NCBI GenBank assembly: GCA_964016885.1
Contig: OZ024743.1
Location: 247,256,001-247,320,000 of the forward strand
Length of the DNA stretch: 64,000 nucleotides
DNA from: Eledone cirrhosa
Lineage: Eukaryota
Direction: 5' to 3'
This document shows positions 7,130-58,098 of the stretch, one piece after another. Position 1 is the stretch's first letter; each line of letters begins with the position of its first letter. A program made the position numbers and the translations under genes. The notes below the pieces were generated by a model, which made no database searches, was not told where the DNA came from, and was given only the letters and a program-made list of their open reading frames with translations.

Positions 7130-10100
7130 TTCGTGGAAGCATGACCCACTACATTATAATGGTTCCCTTATAGGGAAAACATCTAACATTCAAATGCCCA
7201 AAACTCTGAGTTGGTACCATCAATGTAAGCACAATGAAAGGAAGAGCAGGAGAAATCATAGAGATGCTAGAGCGAAAGGAAATTGATGTATGCTGTGTGC
7301 AAGAGACTAGATGGAGAGGAGAGTCTGCTAGAGTCCTTGTAGGAAAAAGTCAGTGCTACAAATTGGGCGGTGTAGGTATCCTACTAGCTGACAAGTGGGT
7401 AGATAAAGTAATCTCAGTGAACAGGGTGAATGCAAGAATCATTAAACTCAGACTAGTCCTGAATAAAACAATTACCACAATAATATCAGCTTACGCACCC
7501 CAATCGGGGTTGCCAGACGAACTTAAGGATAGGTTTTTACGAGTCCCTAATGCACACTACTGCTCTAACAAACGACAATGATTTCCTAATCATTGCAGGA
7601 GATTTTAATGGACATGTAGGTAACATGTAGGTAAACCCGACAACCAGCTTATCACCTATAGATCAGCGGAGTATTCTAGTCAGATAGATTTTATCCTCAT
7701 CAGAGGACGTGACAGATGGACGGTCGTAAACACAAAAGCCTTCCCTAGTGAGGAATTTACCTCCCAACATAGCTTAGTTGTCAGCGACCTCACGGTCAGA
7801 ACTAGACGAACCTGGAAACAGAAGCCAACCTGGAGAAGAAAGATCTGGAAGCTAAAAGACCCCTCAGCCAGTAACAGATTTAAAGATATTTTACTCAGTA
7901 AAGAACAGATAGAGATATTCAATGTAGAAGAGCACTGGGAGTTCCTAAAAAATAACTTACTAGAGGCGACGGATGAGATCTGTGGCTGGAGTAAGACCAC
8001 AGGCAGGAGGAGAGTGATTTGGTGGTGGAACAATAAGGTAGATGAGGCAGTTAAGGCCAAGAGACAGGCATGGAAAGAATGGAAGAACGGGGGAAGCAGG
8101 GTACATTACATAGAAACCAGGAGAGAAGCTAGGCAATAAGTATACTTAGCTAGGAGGGAAGCAGAGGATAGAAAATTCAAGCATGTTTTGCAATGTGAGG
8201 ACCAGAAACAAGAGGTGTTCAAGATTGCGAGGCAGTGTGTCAGAGAGAATTGTGATGTCATTGGAGAGAAGTGAATCCGGAATGATAAAGGTGAGCTTGC
8301 CCTCATAAATGCTGAGAAGAAAGATGCATGGAAGAGCCATTATGATAGATTACTAAATGAGGAGAATGCATGGGAAGAAGAGTCCCTACCCCAAGTAGAC
8401 ACTATAGAGGGGCCGGCAGTACAAGTCAGCACCAGCGTAGTAAGTAAGGCAATCAAAATATGAAGACGGGGAAGGCAACTGGTCCATCGGGTATAGCTGC
8501 CGAGATGCTGAAGGCATCTGGGTCGGTAGGTCACACCATAACCACGAGTATTGTTAACCAGGTAATATTAGGTGTCATTGCCAACTGCTACAAAGGTAAA
8601 GGTGATGCACTAGATAGAGGAAACTATAGAGGTATAAAGTTGATGGACCAGGTCATGAAAGTAACAGAAAGAGTTATAGCACAGTTGATTAGGGACTGGG
8701 TGAAACTAGATGAGATGCAATTTGGGTTTGTGCCAGGAAGAGGCACCACTCATGCCCTCTTCCTTGTGAGGCAGCTACAGGAAAAGTACCTAGCTAAAAG
8801 TAAGCCACTCTACCTGGCATTCGTCAATCTCGAGAAAGCCTTTGACAGAGTTCCCCGTGCTATAATCTGGTGGGCTCTTAGAAAACTAGGAGTAGATGAA
8901 TGGCTTGTGAAAGCTGTACAAGCCATGTATAGGGGATCAGTCAGCAAAGTTAGGATTAGCAATGAGTATAGCGAGGAATTTAGCGTACAGGTCGGTGTCC
9001 ACCAGGGCTCTGTTCTTAACCCTCTCCTGTTCATCATAGTCCTGCAGGCAATAACAGAGGAGTTTAAGACCGGATGCCCATGGGAACTCCTGTATGCAGA
9101 TGACCTCGCACTTATAGCTGAATCTATGGTAGAACTAGAGAAGAAATTCCAAACTTGGAAGCAGGGACTAGAAAGAAAGGGTCTCAAAGTCAACCTGACA
9201 AAGACTAAGGTCCTTGTAAGTAGACGAGAAAACAGAACTCAGATCCCCTCAGGGAAATGGCCTTGCTCAGTATGTAGGAAAGGTGTAGGTAGGAACTCCA
9301 TTCTCTTCCCCAAATGCAAACAATAGGTACACAAGAGATGTAGCGGGATCTCAGGAAGCTTAACTAAGAATGTAGGCTTCATATGTAGCAGCTGCGCTGG
9401 GACAGCAAGCAGCAAACAGCCACAAGAAACAAGCACCACCAAACTCTGGGAAGACTCTGTAGAAACAGTAGACCGCTGCTAATTCGGTCACCTAGGTAGC
9501 AGAAGCTGAGGTGGGTGTTCAGAAAGTACAATAACTAGGGTAAGAACGGGATGGAAGAAGTTCAGGAAGCTACTGCCACTGCTAGCTGCAAAAGGCTTTT
9601 CCCTCAAAATGAAAGACAGACTGTATGATGCGTGTATATGAACAGCAATGTTACATGGTAGTGAGACCTGGGCGCTGACTGTGGAAGAGTTGCGCAGATT
9701 AGAAAGAAACGAAGCCTGCATGCTCCGATGGATGTGTAATAGTAATATACGCGAACGGCAAAGCATAAATGAATTGAGAGAGAGACTGAGCATAAGAGGA
9801 ATCAAATGCTGTGTGCAGGAGAGGCGGTTGTGTTGGTATGGACATGTGATGCGTATGAAGGATGACAGCTGCATAAAAAGGTGCAGAGCACTAGAAGTCA
9901 ATGGAAACCGCGGAGTGGGGAGACCCAAGAAGACCTGGGATGGGGTGATAAAAGCCGACCTTATCCAATTACACCTCTTAAAGGCGATGACACACGACCG
10001 TAACCTCTGGCGTCACGCAGTAATACAGAATACCCAACCCCCCCCCCACGAGTAGAAACCGAAGCTGAAGCATATAGACAATATGCCCCCCCACACCCTC

Positions 10101-13472: not shown

Positions 13473-15727
13473 CTAAAAAATATACCAAAATTGTGTGTGA
13501 AAAGTCTGCAAGAGATAGCAAAAATGTATACATTCAGGTAGACATCTGCATCAGGATGTTGTAATAAAGATTGATAAATAACATCATTATTATATCAATG
13601 CAATATAGTATATATCACTAAAATATGAGTAATTGTAATTAAAAAATTTGCAATACAATAGACATGCACCATTTTCAATTTACAAAAATTATGTCATTTA
13701 CTTCTCAGTAAAATTTTCAAAAGAGCATTTAACTGAATAACTTTTGAAAGGTAAGATAACTTTCATAATAAACAAATTCATGACATTAAAAGAATAAATA
13801 ATTGCTCCTAACATTATTATGTAAAAAATATATAAATATTCCTGATTTTTATTCCTTACATCTTCAGATATTTGAAACATGGTCCACTTTTCCTAAGCAC
13901 ACAGGCTTTTTTGTATGAAAATAAACATCAATAAATATCAATCACTATAACTACAATATATTATGATTATTTTATCAACTTGGGCAAGATTAAATTAAGA
14001 TAAAGTCTGTCAAAGGCTCATCAGACTAGTGCTTATTTCAATTTCATTGGGGTTAAGTTATTAAAAGTAAGACTTCTGGTCAGATGGAGCACTAGTCCAA
14101 TACAGGATTATCCCCAAGCTCCTGTGAATACTAATTGTTTTTAACTGAGTGGGTTGATGCAACATAAAATGAATAGTCTCGCACTGCCTCATCTGGGAAT
14201 CAAAACCATGACCATACAATTGTGAGTCAAACACTTTAACCAATAGGCCATGAACCTTCACAACTCAGGCAAGATGAGAAAAATTCAGTGAGATTTGAAC
14301 TTAAAAATGCGAAACACAAAACTAAATACAGTAAAACCTCAAATTTAGCTGTCTACTTTGTTTTAAGAAAAATGTTAAATCTTAAAATTGATACTAAATT
14401 TAACTCTGACATTAAGTACACTAATTAAATATAAACTTGAAAAGCAGGTTTATTACTGCGTTTAATGCAAGTATTTCACTTGAAAAGATGTTTTGGCATA
14501 AAAAGAGTTAAAATATATAAAATATAATTCTCATAACATATTTTATGTTATAACATTAGTTTCAAATATTAATACAAACATCAATTAAAATTACAGACAA
14601 ACTCCTTATGAGAATATAAATGATTACATGAATTTTCTGAAGATCTCCGTGAGATGTGGTTAAATTTAATAATTTAATGCTTGACACATATTTTAATTAT
14701 AGAATACTGTCAAAGCTACAATATTTCTACCAACAAAACTGTAAATTCAATTTTATTTAAATAGAATGATATATGATGATATTTGCCACAAGATCACACA
14801 AAAAAGTAAAAATACAAAACAAAACAATAAAAAACAGGTGTTAAAAAAATTTCATACAAATAAATAAATAGATGAGAATACTCCAAAACTCAATGCCCTC
14901 ATTTCAAGACAAACACCTTCTCCCTGCTCAAGTTTGGAAATGACAGAGAGAGAATTTATTCCTAACATCAAACCTGCTTCTCATACCTACCTTTCATTAT
15001 CCAACATCAAATTTCTCTCTATCTCTCTCCACTCTCACATATATATATGATACACATCATGATACTCAAAAAAGATAACATTTTCACAAAAGTTATGATA
15101 ACAACGAAAAAAAAGATGAAATTTACAGTTCAAATCTATTGCAGGTTTAACTAGCTTCTAACAAGGTTGCTTCTCAGAGGTTTCTTGGAAATTTTAATAG
15201 GGGACTCCAGACCTATCATGAAACAAGTCCCCTCTGGACTTCATGCTATTCTGTTGTAGAGATTAGTTTTGTTTTTCTTTTAAATGGAATAGGGCAAGAC
15301 ACAACTTGCCGTTCAGTCCAGGAATCAAACCTTATGATTGTGAGTCTAACATCCTAACCACCAGGCCATGCACCTTCATAGTAACAACTATGTATTTATG
15401 ATTACAAATAAACTGCTTCTTTTCTTTGTTTGTATGTATGTATGAGTGTTCCTTTTTTTGGTGGGGACACTAATTATAATTAAATATAGCAGAAATGAAA
15501 GACATGTCATATAGAAGAGACTAGCAGAATGGCCCGGCGTTGCTCGGGATTTGTTCTAGGGTTCTTATATATTTGATATATATTTATCCTTATCGAGCCT
15601 CGTGAAATAAATACGTTTGTTTATATGTATATATAGTGTATTTTGCAATACACTGTATGCTTAATTAAAAGCATTTCGAAGACCTTACGCTATTGTTTTA
15701 GAGTAGTGACAGTCTCACTTACTTTAA

Positions 15728-15822
15728 ATTTTCAGCAAACAGGGGAGATAAAGCTGACAGAGCTCTGTTTCGTACTTATTGGTACTTATCAAGGCTAAGT
15801 ACTCCACCTGTTTTCTGAAAAT
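15728..15822 (-). ncRNA. Second copy of the same type I hammerhead ribozyme (sense to the host pre-mRNA)
   Basis: Reverse complement of 16081-16175 apart from loop II (caataa vs caatta) and agcc instead of agct at the base of stem I, which gives a C-A mismatch. Predicted cleavage is between 15756 and 15755. Confidence 0.85.
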
Positions 15823-16080
15823 CATGAATGTTTGATTCTTATAGAATTCTAGTAATAATCAGGAATTGACTATACAGAGCGGTTGCCAGTCAAGCAGAAA
15901 TTGAAAATTAGAATTGGTGCTCTGAAATAGCGATATGTATATGAATGTATATATAGTGTATTTTGCAATACACTGTATGCTTGCACCAATTCTAATTTTC
16001 AATTTCTGCTTGACCGGCAACCGCTCTGTATAATCAGTTCCTGATTATTACTAGAATTCTATAAGAATCAAACATTCATG

Positions 16081-16175
16081 ATTTTCAGAAAACAGGTGGA
16101 GTACTTAGCTTTGATAAGTACCAATTAGTACGAAACAGAGCTCTGTCAGCTTTATCTCCCCTGTTTGCTGAAAAT
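16081..16175 (+). ncRNA. Type I hammerhead ribozyme with U3-A8 core variant
   Basis: Stem I: attttcag-a-aaacagg-t-ggag-(tactt)-agct pairs with agct-(ttat)-ctcc-cctgttt-g-ctgaaaat. Core TTGATAA at 16111-16117. Stem II gtac-caatta-gtac. GAAA at 16132-16135. Stem III cag-agct-ctg. GTC cleavage triplet ends at 16147. Confidence 0.88.
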
Positions 16176-16368
16176 TTAAAGTAAGTGAGACTGTCACTAC
16201 TCTAAAACAATAGCGTAAGGTCTTCGAAATGCTTTTAATTAAGCATACAGTGTATTGCAAAATACACTATATATACATTCATATATATATCGCTATTTCA
16301 GAGCACCAATTCTAACGTTTGTTTATATTTTGTTATTGTGTATGCAAAAATATCTGTACACGAATAAA

Positions 16369-16412
<44 letters not shown>

Positions 16413-16525
16413 TAACAGATTAAAGTTTAAGCAAAGAATCGCTGCTTTCTCCCTTAACGAGATCTTTTGAAACTAAAAAAAATCAATCTGTGAATGCAGA
16501 AGTAAATATTTCGAAAAACGTTATA

Positions 16526-16569
<44 letters not shown>

Positions 16570-24474: not shown

Positions 24475-26565
24475 AGGCTCCAGAATCCTGGAATTCTGTG
24501 ACGCAAATAACCTAACTATCTGTAACACTAACTTCAAAAAAACGTGACAATCACCTGATCACCTATAGATCCGGGGAACACACAAGCCAGGTAGATTATA
24601 TCCTTACCAGAAGACGTGACAGAGTGTCTGTTGTAAACACTAAATCCCTCCCCCATGAAGAATGCACCTCCCAACATAGACTGATAATTAGCGACCTCAT
24701 AGTCAGGACGAGACGTACTCGACAGCAGAAAAGGACTATCCTCAGGAGAAAAATATGGAAGCTAAAGGACCCCACAGCCAGAAATAAATTTCAAAGCATA
24801 TTACTTGATGCTTTCGACAGTAAGGAAGAGCATTTAGAGTCGGACAATATAGAGAGACAGTGGGAATTTCTGAAAGCAAACCTGCTGATGGCGACAGACG
24901 AAGTCTGTGGCTGGAGCAGGCCTGTAGGCAGGAGGAGAGTAACATGGTGGTGGAACAGTAAGGTGGAGGGGTCAATTAAAGCCAAAAAGCAGGCTTGGAA
25001 AGTATGGCGGGATGGGGAAAGTAGAGAAGACTATCAAGTGGCCAGGAGGGAAGCTAGGAGACAAGTGTACTTCGCAAGAAGGGAAGCAGAGGAAAGAAAG
25101 TTCAAGCATGTTCTACAACGCGAGGACCAAAAACGTGACGTGTTCAGGATTGCTAGGCAATGCGTCAAGGAAAACCGTGATATTGTCGGGGAGAAGTGTG
25201 TACTTAATGATGACAGCGTACTTGCCATCACCGACGCTGATAAGAAGGTAGCTTGGAAGTGTCACTATGAAAGGCTACTAAATGAGGAGAATAAATGGGA
25301 GAAAGACAGTCTCCCCCACATCGACCCAATAGAGGGACCAGCAGTGTTAGTCGAGGGGAGTATAATAAGTAAGGCAATCAAGGATATGAAGACGGGTAAG
25401 GCGGCTGGGCCTTCGGAAATAGTTGCGGAGATGCTGAAGGCATCTGGCACGGTGGGACACACCATGGTCACCCGCATAGTTAACCAAGTCATACAGAATG
25501 GGGTTGTTCCGAAGGACTGGCATAGCAGCATCATCGTGAACTGTTATAAGGGTAAAGGAGATGCCCTAGATAGGAGTAACTATAGAGGCATTAAATTAAT
25601 CGACCAGGTCATGAAGGTCACGGAAAAAGTAATAGCGCAACTAATCAGAGAGAGAATTGACCTAGATGAAATGCAGTTTGGGTTTGTGTCAGGCAAAAGT
25701 ACCACAGACGCTCTTTTCATTGTACGACAACTACAGGAGAAGTACCTAGCTAAAGGTAAACCCCTCTACTTAGCTTTTGTCGACTTGGAGAAAGCCTTCG
25801 ACAGAGTCCCCCGCTCCATTATCTGGTGGGCTCTTAGAAAACTAGGTGTTGACGAATGGCTTGTGAGAGCCATACAAGCCATGTATAAAGAAACAGTCAG
25901 CAAGGTTAGAATTAACAACGAAGAGAGTTAAGAGTTTAGCGTAAAAGTTGGTGTCCATCAGGGCTCTGTTCTCAGCCCCCTACTATTTATTATTGCCCTT
26001 CAGGCTATAACAGAGGAGTTCAAGACCGGCTGCCCATGGGAACTCCTATACGCAGACGACCTGACACTCATAGCTGAATCAATGGCCGAGCTAGAGAAGA
26101 AATTCCAAACATGGAAGCACGGCCTAGAATCAAAAGGCCTTAAAATTAACCCGGCTAAGACTAAAGTTCTAGTTTGTAGGAAAGAAAATAAGGCGGCGGT
26201 CCCTTCTGGGAAATGGTCATGCTCAGTGTGTAGGAAAGGCGTAGGTAGAAACTCCATTTTATGTCCTAAATGCAAAGTATGGGTGCATAAAAGATGTAGT
26301 GGGATCACAGGTAAGCTAACTAAGAACATAGATTTCACATGTGGCCGGTGCTCTGGTGCAATAAGTAGCAGCAAGTGCCCACAAAATACTAGCTCTTTCA
26401 ATTGTGCAGAGGGTTCTATAGAAATAGTGGACAGCTTCCGTTACCTGGGCGATAAAATCAGCAGTGGGGGAGGGTGCTCTGAAAGTACAGTAGCTAGAGG
26501 GGAATACCCCCGTCCAAACCCATGCAAGCGTGGAACACGGACGTTAAACGTTGATGATGATGATG
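24475..26565 (+). mobile_element. 5'-truncated RTE LINE with a deletion joining the RT thumb directly to the 3' tail
   Basis: 435-aa ORF 24624-25931 plus 26082-26497 (RT motifs, intact C4HC3 finger, FRYLG). It jumps at about 26497 to cccgtccaaacccatgcaagcgtggaacacggacgttaaacgtt(gat)n. Confidence 0.95.
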
Positions 26566-27006
26566 ATATATATATATATATATTATATATATATATGTAT
26601 GAATGAATGAATGAATGAAGTAATTCCATCGGAAAGGTCCAGGAAAAAAGAGTGCTCTATGTAGGTTACAGAGCTTAATAGTTATGTAATAAACAACAAG
26701 GTAATTATTTCATTTACCAGTGGTTTCTTGAAAGCAAACATGTATGTATGTGTATATATATATATATATACGATATTAAATAAATGGAAACTATATTTAT
26801 AAAACCATATTTATTTCACTATACATATTTCAGGGATACCAGATTAAAAAACTTGTCGAGTGCTTTATATCAGTTATAAAATATTTACTTGTTGTATCCC
26901 AACAATTTTAAATAGAACTTTTGCATATATATATAACCTCCTCCTATATATATATATATATTTAAGAGTTAAATAAGGTTCAATGAATACTTCTAAGAAT
27001 GAGTTT

Positions 27007-47486: not shown

Positions 47487-49318
47487 GTGTACTTAGTGTC
47501 ATGAATGATCAGAAAAAGGAGGCCTGGAAATGTCATTATGAGAGACTGATGAATGTGGAGAACGAATGGGAGAGAGAGAAATTACCCTTAGTAGATCCGA
47601 CAGAGGGACCAGCTATTGAGATTGACGAATATAGGGTCCAAGAGGCGATTAGAGAAATGAAAAATGATAAGGCTGCTAGATCATCGGGAATAGTTGCTGA
47701 GATGCTGAAGGCATCAGGGGATGTAGGCACTAAACTGGTTGCACGCATCATCAATCAGGCTATATATGGTGGTGTCATACCCAAAGACTGGTGCAGTAGT
47801 ATTCTCATAATTGCTACAAAGGTAAAGGGGATGCTCTGGAGAGGAGCAATTATAGGAGTATAAAACTGATAGACCAGGTTATGAAAGTGGCAGAAAGGAT
47901 ATTAGCACAACTAATTAGAGAAAGGGTCAAACTAGATGAGATGCAGTTTGGTTTTGTGCCTGGGAAGAGTACAACAGATGCCCTCTTCTTGGTGAGACAA
48001 TTGCAAGAGAGGTTCTTAGAGAAAAATAAGCCACTATACTTAGCCTTTGTTGACCTAGAGAAGGCCTTTGATAGGGTACCCCGATCTGTCATCTGGTGGT
48101 CCCTAAGGAAGCTAGGTGTTGAGGAATGGCTTGTGAGGACAGTGCAAACTTTGTACAGAGGTACTCTCAGTAAAGTCAGGGTAGGAATGGAGTTTAGTGA
48201 GGAATTCAGGATACAAGTAGGAGTACATCAGGGTTCAGTCCACAGCCCGCTCTTGTTCATTATAGTCCTCCAAGCCATAACAGAGGAGTTTAAGACTGGC
48301 TGTCCATGGGAACTTCTCTATGCTGACGATCTGGTTCTTATAGCAGAATCAGTAGAGGAGCTAGAGAATAAATTCTGGCTATGGAAACAGCAGTTGGAAG
48401 CAAGAGGACTGAGAGTGAACCTAGCTAAGACAAAAGTGTTGATGAGTAGAAAAAAGGACAAAACCATGATTCCATCAGGGAAATGGCCATGTTCGATATG
48501 CAGAAAAGGAACTGGCATAAATTCTATAAAATGCACACAATGCAGATCCTGGGTACACAAGAGATGTAGCGGGATAGCAGGCAAACTAACAGGTAGGGAA
48601 AATATGTATGCAGTAGATGTACAGGGAAATTAGACAGTAGAAGTCGCATTGATAGACACATTTTTCAAATGCAGGAGGGCGCTATAGAAGTGGATAGCTT
48701 CCGGTACGGTACCTAGGAGATCAGATTAGCATGGGAGGAGGGTGTTCCGAGGCCATAGTATCTAGAATAAAGACGGGTTGGAAGAAGTTTAGGGAGCTGC
48801 TTTCTCTGTTGACGAAGAAGGGTTTCTCCCTGCGTACGAAAGGCCGGTTGTATGATGCCTGTGTGAGGAGCGCAACGCTGCATGGTAGTGAGACATGGGC
48901 AGCAACTGCAGAGGATATGCGACGGCTGGAGAGAAATGAGGCAAGCATGCTCCGTTGGTTGTGCAGTGTAAATGTGCGTGAACGACCCAGCATAAATGTG
49001 TTGAGAGAGAAACTGTGTCTGAGAGGGATAGAATGTAGTGTACGGGAGAGGAGACTGAGGTGGTATGGACATGTGATGCGCATGGAGGATGACCGATGGG
49101 TAAAGAAGTGCCAGGAAATGCCAGTTGAAGGAAGACGTGGTAGAGGTAGACCACGAAAAACATGGGCGGAGGTGGTGAGAACGGACCTCAGATCATTGAA
49201 GCTCACAGTGGAGATGACGAAGGACCGTGACGAGTGGAGAGATGCTGTGCTGAATAAGACCCGTCCCACCCTTGCAAGCAGGGAAAAGCGAACGTAAAAT
49301 GATGATGATGATGATGAT
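47487..49318 (+). mobile_element. 5'-truncated RTE LINE (subfamily whose ORF runs into the 3' tail)
   Basis: ORFs 47501-47863, 47881-48633 and 48731-49297 are frameshifted pieces of one RT ORF ending KTRPTLASREKRT*, followed immediately by (GAT)n. Confidence 0.95.
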
Positions 49319-56159: not shown

Positions 56160-58098
56160 TCATCATCATCACTGTTTAACATCCATTTTACCATGCTAGC
56201 AAGGATTAGACGAGTTGTCTCATTGTTAGATAAGCCAGGTCAGATGACCATGTCTTGCTCAAACAGAACTGTTTCTGGATTTGTTTCTACAGTTGGATGC
56301 TCTTCCTAATGCCAACCACATATACAGTATGTACTGGATGCTTTTTGTCATTGACAACTACATGACCACTTTACAATGTGGACAGGGGGTCGGGTGGGAG
56401 AGGTAAATGGAGATTGGAGAGGTAGCTCTAGTATGAGGCACTAATCTATTGAATAGTGAGAGTGTAGGGATGTGGATGAAGAGTGGTGTTAGGACATGCA
56501 TGTGTTAAGAGGTGGCTGGAGTGTTAGGATCTGGGAGGTGTATGGAAGAGTGAGGGGAAGGTAATGCATACAAGATGCACACATGGAAATGCATGTGCTT
56601 TGTATTATTGCATTTGTGTCATTGCCTTTGAGAGGTGCAAGGTCATCTTTTATCACTTAATCCCAAGTGTTCCTACTCCATAGCTTCCATTGACTTTGAT
56701 CGCCCTGCACCTTATTATACAGCTGTCATCCTTCATAAGCATCACATGTCCATCCCAACTCATTCTCCTCTCCTGCACATTGCATCTGATCCCTCTTATG
56801 CCTAATTTCTCTCACAGTTCGTTTATGACTCACCATTAGTGTATATTACACATCCATCAACGCATGCAAGCTTCATTTCTTTCCTATCTTTGCAAGTCTT
56901 CTGCACACAGCACCCAGGTCTCACTACTATGCAACACATGGATCATACAATCTGCTCTTCATTTTGAGGGGAAACATTCCATAGCTAGTAGTGGTAGTAG
57001 CTCCCTGAACTTCCTCCATCCTGTTCTCACTCTGCCTACTGTACTTTTGGAACACCCACCTAATTTAGTTACCCAGTTAAGAGAAACTATCAACTACTTC
57101 TACCAAGCCTTCTGGGCATTTAAAGGAGCTAATACCCTGTGGGCTCTTACTACTTATTGTGCCTGTGCAACAACCACATATAAAACCTGAATTCTTTACT
57201 AGCCTACTTGAAATCCCAGTACATTTCTTGTGTACCCATAGTTGGCATTTGGAGCATAAGATGGAATTTCTACCTACTTCTTTCATGCAAACTGAGCAAG
57301 GCCACTTCCTTGAGGGAATCTGGGCCTTGATTTCCTTTTTACATACTAAGACATTGGTCTTTGCTAAGCTGACTTTAAGACCTTTAGTTTCTAGGCTTTA
57401 CTTCCAGATTTGGAATTTCTTCTCTAGTTCTGCCATGGATTCAGCTATAAGGGTTAGGTCATTTGCATACAAAAGTTCCCATGGGCAGCCAGTCTTAAAC
57501 TCTTCTGTTATAACCTGCAGAACAATAATAAACAGAAGAGGATTAACAACAGAGCCCTGATGAACATCAACCTGCACACTAAATTCTTCACAATAGTAAT
57601 TAATTCTAACCTTGCTGACTGTTCCTCTATACATAGTTTGTACTGCCCTCACAAGCCACTCATCTACTCCTAGTTTTCTAAGAGCCTACCAGATAATGGA
57701 ACAGGGGACTCTATCAAAAGCTTTCTTCAAGTCAACAGATGCCAAGTAGAGGGGGTTTACTTTTAGCTAGGTACTTCTCCTGCAGTTGCCTCACAAGGAA
57801 GAAGGCATCAGTGGTACTTTTACCAAGCACAAATCCAAACTGATCAGCTGTGCTATAACTCTTTCTGTGACCTACATGACCTGGTCAATCAACTTGATGC
57901 CTCTATAATTTTTTCTGTCTAGAGCATCTCTGTTAGCAGCCCTTGTAGCATTGATGATGCTATGCCAGTCGTTGGTTATGACACCATTTTGTATTACTTG
58001 GTTTACAATACAAGTGGTAAAAGCATGATCCACCATCCCAGATGCTTTCAGCATCTCGGCAACTATACCTGAAGGTCCAACTGCTTTGCCTGTCTTCG
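56160..58098 (-). mobile_element. Older, degraded RTE copy
   Basis: RT fragments (NYRGIKLIDQVM, VHQGS, LLYAND), finger remnant, 3' UTR and (CAT)n tail at 56160. Confidence 0.9.

Follow-up and report, generated by a model that had tools for sequence, protein, structure and literature searches.

The hammerhead motif at positions 16080–16178 of the window, a 64-kb stretch of the Eledone cirrhosa genome, is probably the self-cleaving module of a non-LTR retrozyme, a non-coding, multi-copy unit of approximately 320 nt whose copies were probably written by a Penelope-like RT/endonuclease. The unit likely represents a new family of metazoan non-LTR retrozyme, with mobilization by Penelope-like elements (PLEs) likely as well. 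This retrozyme and PLE context was absent from the preliminary description of the locus. Literature searches (hammerhead, cephalopod, Penelope, retrozyme, and U3-A8), at the level of paper listings, returned no description of this family.

Structure of the variant hammerhead

The elements of the motif were assigned from the sequence and a constrained fold, as follows.

16080–16178, forward strand: type I hammerhead motif, with a stem I of 24 bp containing a 5 × 4 internal loop, and stems II and III of 4 bp each
16111–16117, forward strand: core strand U3-U4-G5-A6-U7-A8-A9 (UUGAUAA), in which U3 (16111) pairs with A8 (16116), replacing C3-G8
16118–16131, forward strand: stem II, GUAC/GUAC, with a 6-nt loop
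16132–16147, forward strand: G12-A13-A14 (GAA, 16132–16134), stem III, loop AGCU, U16.1 (16146), and C17 (16147), with cleavage predicted on its 3' side

Three helices surrounded the core in type I order, and the core carried N3-U4-G5-A6-N7-N8-A9, G12-A13-A14, A15.1-U16.1, and H17, with a Watson-Crick 3:8 pair. The sequence and the constrained fold thus agreed with the preliminary description, which had reported a complete type I hammerhead with all elements in register. Stem I began at the core with 4 bp (AGCU/AGCU), followed by the UACUU/UUAU internal loop, four pairs away from the core, and then by segments of 4, 7, and 9 bp. The internal loop was suitably placed for a loop I/loop II contact; loop II was the most variable part. 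The 4-bp stem III was closed by the loop AGCU, so that 16135–16146 formed a perfect 12-nt palindrome, and C17 lay within GUC. A descriptor allowing any Watson-Crick 3:8 pair matched the 64-kb window at 16080–16178 and nowhere else, and the same descriptor gave 2 matches in all on 30 Markov-shuffled windows. A chance motif was ruled out by these counts together with the 1442 U3-A8 motifs found genome-wide. We regard the motif as genuine and its self-cleavage as a prediction.

The segment 16070–16185 had a folding z-score of −5.6. The minimum-energy fold of the hammerhead region was a non-hammerhead pairing, 2.9 kcal/mol lower, and the hammerhead fold made up ~0.4% of the ViennaRNA ensemble, in a model that ignores tertiary contacts. 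The hammerhead share of the computed ensemble was 0.4% for U3-A8 copies versus 7–12% for C3-G8 copies. Preference for an inactive fold is a known weakness of such models at junctions, yet it is a real caveat to the modeled structure. Within 16107–16151, each strand of proximal stem I and of stem II is a 4-nt palindrome, as is loop III, so an inactive alternative fold is possible; these palindromes could act as a monomer/dimer switch.

The less favorable computed fold of the U3-A8 copies speaks for a very improbable reading, in which the unit is a pseudo-LTR that became detached from one autonomous PLE family, the hammerhead is a passenger, and U3-A8 is a weakened or dead ribozyme spread by a founder effect. 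A pLTR origin of retrozymes is indeed argued in the accessible part of 10.64898/2026.07.22.740005. Against the passenger reading, U3-A8 ribozymes were active in vitro in the report PMC3088659, where this pair is described as a natural covariation. The rare variant has already been published elsewhere as well: approximately 1,300 U3-A8 hammerheads were found in Schistosoma PLEs, and a dedicated descriptor was made for them (PMC4209133).

A search against Rfam, as proposed in the preliminary description, stayed below threshold. No hammerhead match at E ≤ 1 was obtained for the whole 64-kb window. On a 651-nt stretch, the only hammerhead model to match was Hammerhead_HH9 (19.8 bits, E = 0.034). 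The best Hammerhead_HH9 scores, 19.8–24.8 bits, lay below the gathering score of 52 that Rfam applies. The miRNA matches from Rfam were discarded as low-complexity noise.

The inverted insertion and its genomic family

Self-comparison of the window placed the hammerhead within one arm of a 318-nt inverted repeat. The arms meet head-to-head, and each slightly exceeds one copy of a 319-nt unit. The insertion was divided as follows.

15614–15626, forward strand: left copy of a 13-bp target-site duplication
15627–15982, reverse strand: left arm of ~1.1 units, inverted head-to-head, with the short 3' end
15725–15823, reverse strand: second copy of the hammerhead, with a U3-A8 core and a C-A mismatch at the core-adjacent stem I pair
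15983–16315, forward strand: right arm of 1.04 units, with the tailed 3' end
15984–16302, forward strand: full 319-nt repeat unit, the probable retrozyme monomer in a circular permutation with respect to the cut site
16279–16315, forward strand: PLE-type tail of ~37–39 nt, on the right arm only (tail as described in PMC8557442 and PMC11167929)
16316–16328, forward strand: right copy of the 13-bp target-site duplication

The empty target site was found in locus L031 and, in the form of 702–704-nt skip joints, in sequencing contigs. U3 and A8 were kept in both arms, as the preliminary description had noted when it took the two arms as evidence of covariation; the arms are, however, 288/295 identical and derive from a single event, and so they do not count as independent evidence. 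The copy at 15627–16315 is probably inert, because read-through is predicted to fold its arms into a duplex of ~300 bp that would bury the core.

The insertion interrupts another repeat (15520–15626 and 16316–16530 of the window), which recurs beside the retrozyme in L002, L011, L019, L025, L031, L034, L039, L042, and L051 and forms inverted pairs of its own. This recurrence probably reflects a shared (TA)n target. Elsewhere in the window, four related degenerate repeats (7900–10000, 24500–26600, 47800–49200, and 57090–57600 on the reverse strand) with 70–80% identity and open frames of up to 471 aa are probably LINE remnants.

Motifs were then counted across the Eledone cirrhosa genome (3.0 Gb). 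A 27-nt motif of the unit had 3244 exact matches. Among motifs with stem II GUAC/GUAC, 1442 carried U3-A8 and 108 carried C3-G8, the latter counted with a wider loop range (4–8) and including, among the matches listed, one that is unrelated; the remaining 14 combinations at 3:8 gave 51 in all, with none for G-C or A-U. U3-A8 or C3-G8 was therefore found in ~1550 of ~1600 motifs with an intact GUAC stem II, a count in which fixed stem II patterns favor well-preserved copies. The ratio of U3-A8 to C3-G8 among GUAC-stem copies was ~13:1. A further 801 motifs had stem II GCAU/AUGC; A8 was present in 99/100 among the matches listed, and at least 42 of the 801 belong to an unrelated family. The C3-G8 copies form a sister subfamily of the same ~320-nt unit, ~85% identical. 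These counts bear out two statements of the preliminary description, namely that U3-A8 is a compensatory family trait and not decay (1442 and ~108 paired versus 51 unpaired motifs), and that searches for CUGANGA miss the U3-A8 core, which dominates the family.

The genome holds thousands of arms, both dispersed and as tandem multimers. Spacing from site to site was 321 nt in the tandem loci L006 and L039, and the protein-free unit was 319–321 nt, with no ORF of at least 100 aa across it in the window. Two tandem arrays of ~17 and ~14 units were heterogeneous, with a mean pairwise identity of 88%. The array of ~17 units (L097 and L106, G000:C1:82390457-82395957) showed higher-order repetition of decayed variants, which suggests later DNA-level amplification into a satellite. 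A tandem 164-nt sub-unit (u220–u64) without the hammerhead was observed at L116:683-1296.

In these respects the unit resembles the metazoan non-LTR retrozymes (Cervera & de la Pena 2020, PMC7229834; 10.64898/2026.07.22.740005), as far as these sources describe them: a non-coding unit of 150–450 nt with one type I hammerhead of canonical size, occurrence as monomers, dimers, and long tandem arrays, low GC, a target duplication longer than 4 bp (13 bp at the 15627–16315 locus), and a self-paired monomer (z = −4 to −6 for the Eledone units). The Eledone family differs from them in its mainly U3-A8 core and very long stem I, and in dispersed copies with explicit PLE footprints, that is, head-to-head arms and a one-sided tail.

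Structural selection on the hammerhead

Six subfamilies were distinguished. Their core was invariant apart from positions 3, 7, and 8. They differed at 3–29 of 96 hammerhead positions and at 0–20 of ~185 other positions. Double changes that kept pairing were found at 3:8, at two stem II pairs, at the core-adjacent stem I pair, and at one stem III pair; stem II was GCAC/GUGC or GCAU/AUGC in sister subfamilies. Across 32 aligned copies, hand-picked from ~130 family motifs to cover the subfamilies, 96.5% of cells paired and 11 of 26 pairs had changed on both sides. None of 500 shuffles matched the observed covariation, and slid controls paired at 27–44%. The covariation counts are inflated by relatedness and correspond to approximately six independent events, not 65. 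The alignment of genomic copies, which had been suggested as a check, thus showed a conserved core and covarying stems. These sequence comparisons indicate that the hammerhead is under structural selection.

The same subfamilies bear on the reading of the hammerhead as a dead passenger of a pseudo-LTR. The 3:8 pair was swapped only once between subfamilies, on an unrooted tree, which fits a founder effect. Five U3-A8 subfamilies nevertheless kept the core while fixing double changes in stems I–III, which is unexpected of a dead motif, and the examined loci had no ORF-bearing sequence in common upstream of the unit. Median divergences, compared for the direction of the C3-G8/U3-A8 change, overlapped, at 3.9% for the C3-G8 subfamily and 1.9–5.7% for the U3-A8 subfamilies.

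One double change, AGCU to GGCC, preserved the palindrome of loop III. The palindromic loop III of the preliminary description was kept in the U3-A8 subfamilies, but the C3-G8 subfamily carries the non-palindromic loop AGAU. Action as a dimer is therefore suggested, not required.

Insertion footprints and mobilization

The survey of insertions took in 120 arms at 71 loci, picked mostly through the 3' motif and not through the ribozyme. Of these arms, 97 stopped at one of two 3' sites, the 5' ends scattered across the unit, and 43 arms were longer than one unit. All 38 inverted junctions were head-to-head, and 32 of them joined one tailed and one short arm. A MITE or DNA transposon was rejected, as the inverted arms are fixed at their 3' ends and vary at their 5' junctions. 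Of 93 comparisons between arms within one insertion, 91 agreed in subfamily, versus ~25% expected by chance. The two mismatches both came from L035, where one inverted insertion (L035:828-1667) joins U3-A8/GCAU arms to a C3-G8 arm, either through a two-template event or through a nested insertion.

PLE copies are described as having a tail, an inversion, and a (TA)n bias (PMC8557442), with a tail as long as the spacing of two internal RT starts (PMC11167929). Judged from sequence, the insertion anatomy of the Eledone family matches the PLE pattern of PMC8557442. Features held in common with EN+ PLEs, in the portions of PMC8557442 and PMC11167929 available, are 5' truncation, partial tandems, head-to-head inversion, a 30–40-nt tail at one end, and AT/(TA)n targets. 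Unlike EN+ PLEs, the Eledone unit has no RT or GIY-YIG ORF, as an autonomous PLE would, and the fetched loci gave no homology to a coding PLE. Among the fetched loci there was no autonomous PLE homologous to the unit, at the 3' end or otherwise. The hammerheads of the Schistosoma mansoni Cercyon PLE (PMC4209133) share the compensatory U3-A8 pair, a mostly dispersed distribution, and opposite-strand pairs 100–700 bp apart. In that description helix III is missing and helix II is long, whereas the Eledone motif, part of a tandem unit devoid of ORFs, combines 4-bp helices II and III with a 24-bp helix I.

Another hammerhead candidate with U3-A8, unrelated in sequence, was noticed at L221:4375-4403 and in L191–L220 (42 genome matches). 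It has a short stem I and a mini helix III that is palindromic. Approximately 1.2 kb upstream of it lies a broken ORF containing a GIY-YIG domain (Pfam PF01541, E = 6.6e-5); the candidate also has (TA)n ends and, upstream, an inverted copy. Its stem II, GCAU/AUGC, is common to one retrozyme subfamily, and the candidate was found by that pattern. The L221 lineage is a possible helper PLE. Another abundant repeat (L166:1251-1359, L181:2282-2390, and L184:352-460, all on the reverse strand) carries a hammerhead-like C3-G8 core strand, a hairpin, and GAAA.

In the proposed mechanism of the retrozyme, tandem unit copies would be transcribed, and the hammerhead would cut after C17 once per unit, as a monomer or a dimer, yielding RNAs of ~320 nt. 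These would probably circularize, by analogy with the retrozymes of coral, mussel, and axolotl, for which cleavage and circular RNA have been reported (PMC7229834). A PLE enzyme would then nick AT-rich DNA, and RT would begin at two internal sites ~38 nt apart; the two starts would give head-to-head arms, one tailed and one short, that often exceed one unit. The U3-A8 pair would be a tolerated isosteric swap that is dominant in the ~320-nt family.

The nature of the template was examined from the arms. The cut site showed no enrichment of 5' ends (6 of 120 in u160–172, ~5 expected). Four 5' ends lay exactly at u165, two of them from one inversion centered on the AGCU palindrome, and other 5'-end positions clustered as much. 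A single-circle signature, that is, private alleles common to the units of one insertion, was found 8 times in 27,467 sites versus 5 times in 39,566 control sites, barely above the control. A circular template is therefore not supported by private-allele sharing; the same long arms would also arise from uncut multimers. In contigs from four sequencing runs, which are uninformative on expression level, ends, and strand, a 126-nt contig at depth 398 covered a variant hammerhead and one 320-nt go-back joint (X4) was present; neither is taken as evidence of expression, since genomic tandems yield the same joint.

The lack of excess 5' ends at the cut site and the absence of a clear private-allele signal favor an unlikely alternative in which the hammerhead is real and selected, copying proceeds from uncut tandem transcripts, and cleavage serves only RNA turnover or read-through release, with no circle. 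The long genomic arrays are possible sources of such transcripts, and the anole PLE used mostly unprocessed RNA in vitro (PMC11167929), where insertion by a purified PLE system, in the available text, did not need hammerhead cleavage. The two long arrays are heterogeneous, yet tandem units inside dispersed insertions belonged to the same subfamily in 33 of 33 comparisons, which argues against copying from uncut arrays. So does the stem covariation, which requires selection linked to each copying round, and published retrozymes of similar size are circular (PMC7229834). The preferred reading is still the retrozyme whose hammerhead would release ~320-nt RNAs.

A more specific account of this retrozyme is put forward tentatively and is possible, though not favored. 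The retrozyme may have switched its core 3:8 pair and then evolved under RNA-level selection; the palindrome of loop III, kept even though helix III suffices for a monomer, may point to dimer or trans cleavage; and the two 3' ends, with the arms longer than one unit, may reflect a PLE priming twice on one RNA circle. If the last were true, retrozyme movement would be directly testable with a 320-nt substrate.

The core variant itself is not new, and the value of the family is modest and practical. It provides a natural, matched set of C3-G8 and U3-A8 ribozymes whose kinetics can be compared within one scaffold, and it indicates that animal hammerheads are undercounted by Rfam gathering scores and by CUGANGA descriptors. 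A PLE origin of retrozymes has been argued (Li et al. 2026, 10.64898/2026.07.22.740005, in the part available); the clear PLE footprint of the Eledone family supports this proposed PLE-retrozyme link and provides a small substrate for a reconstituted PLE reaction.
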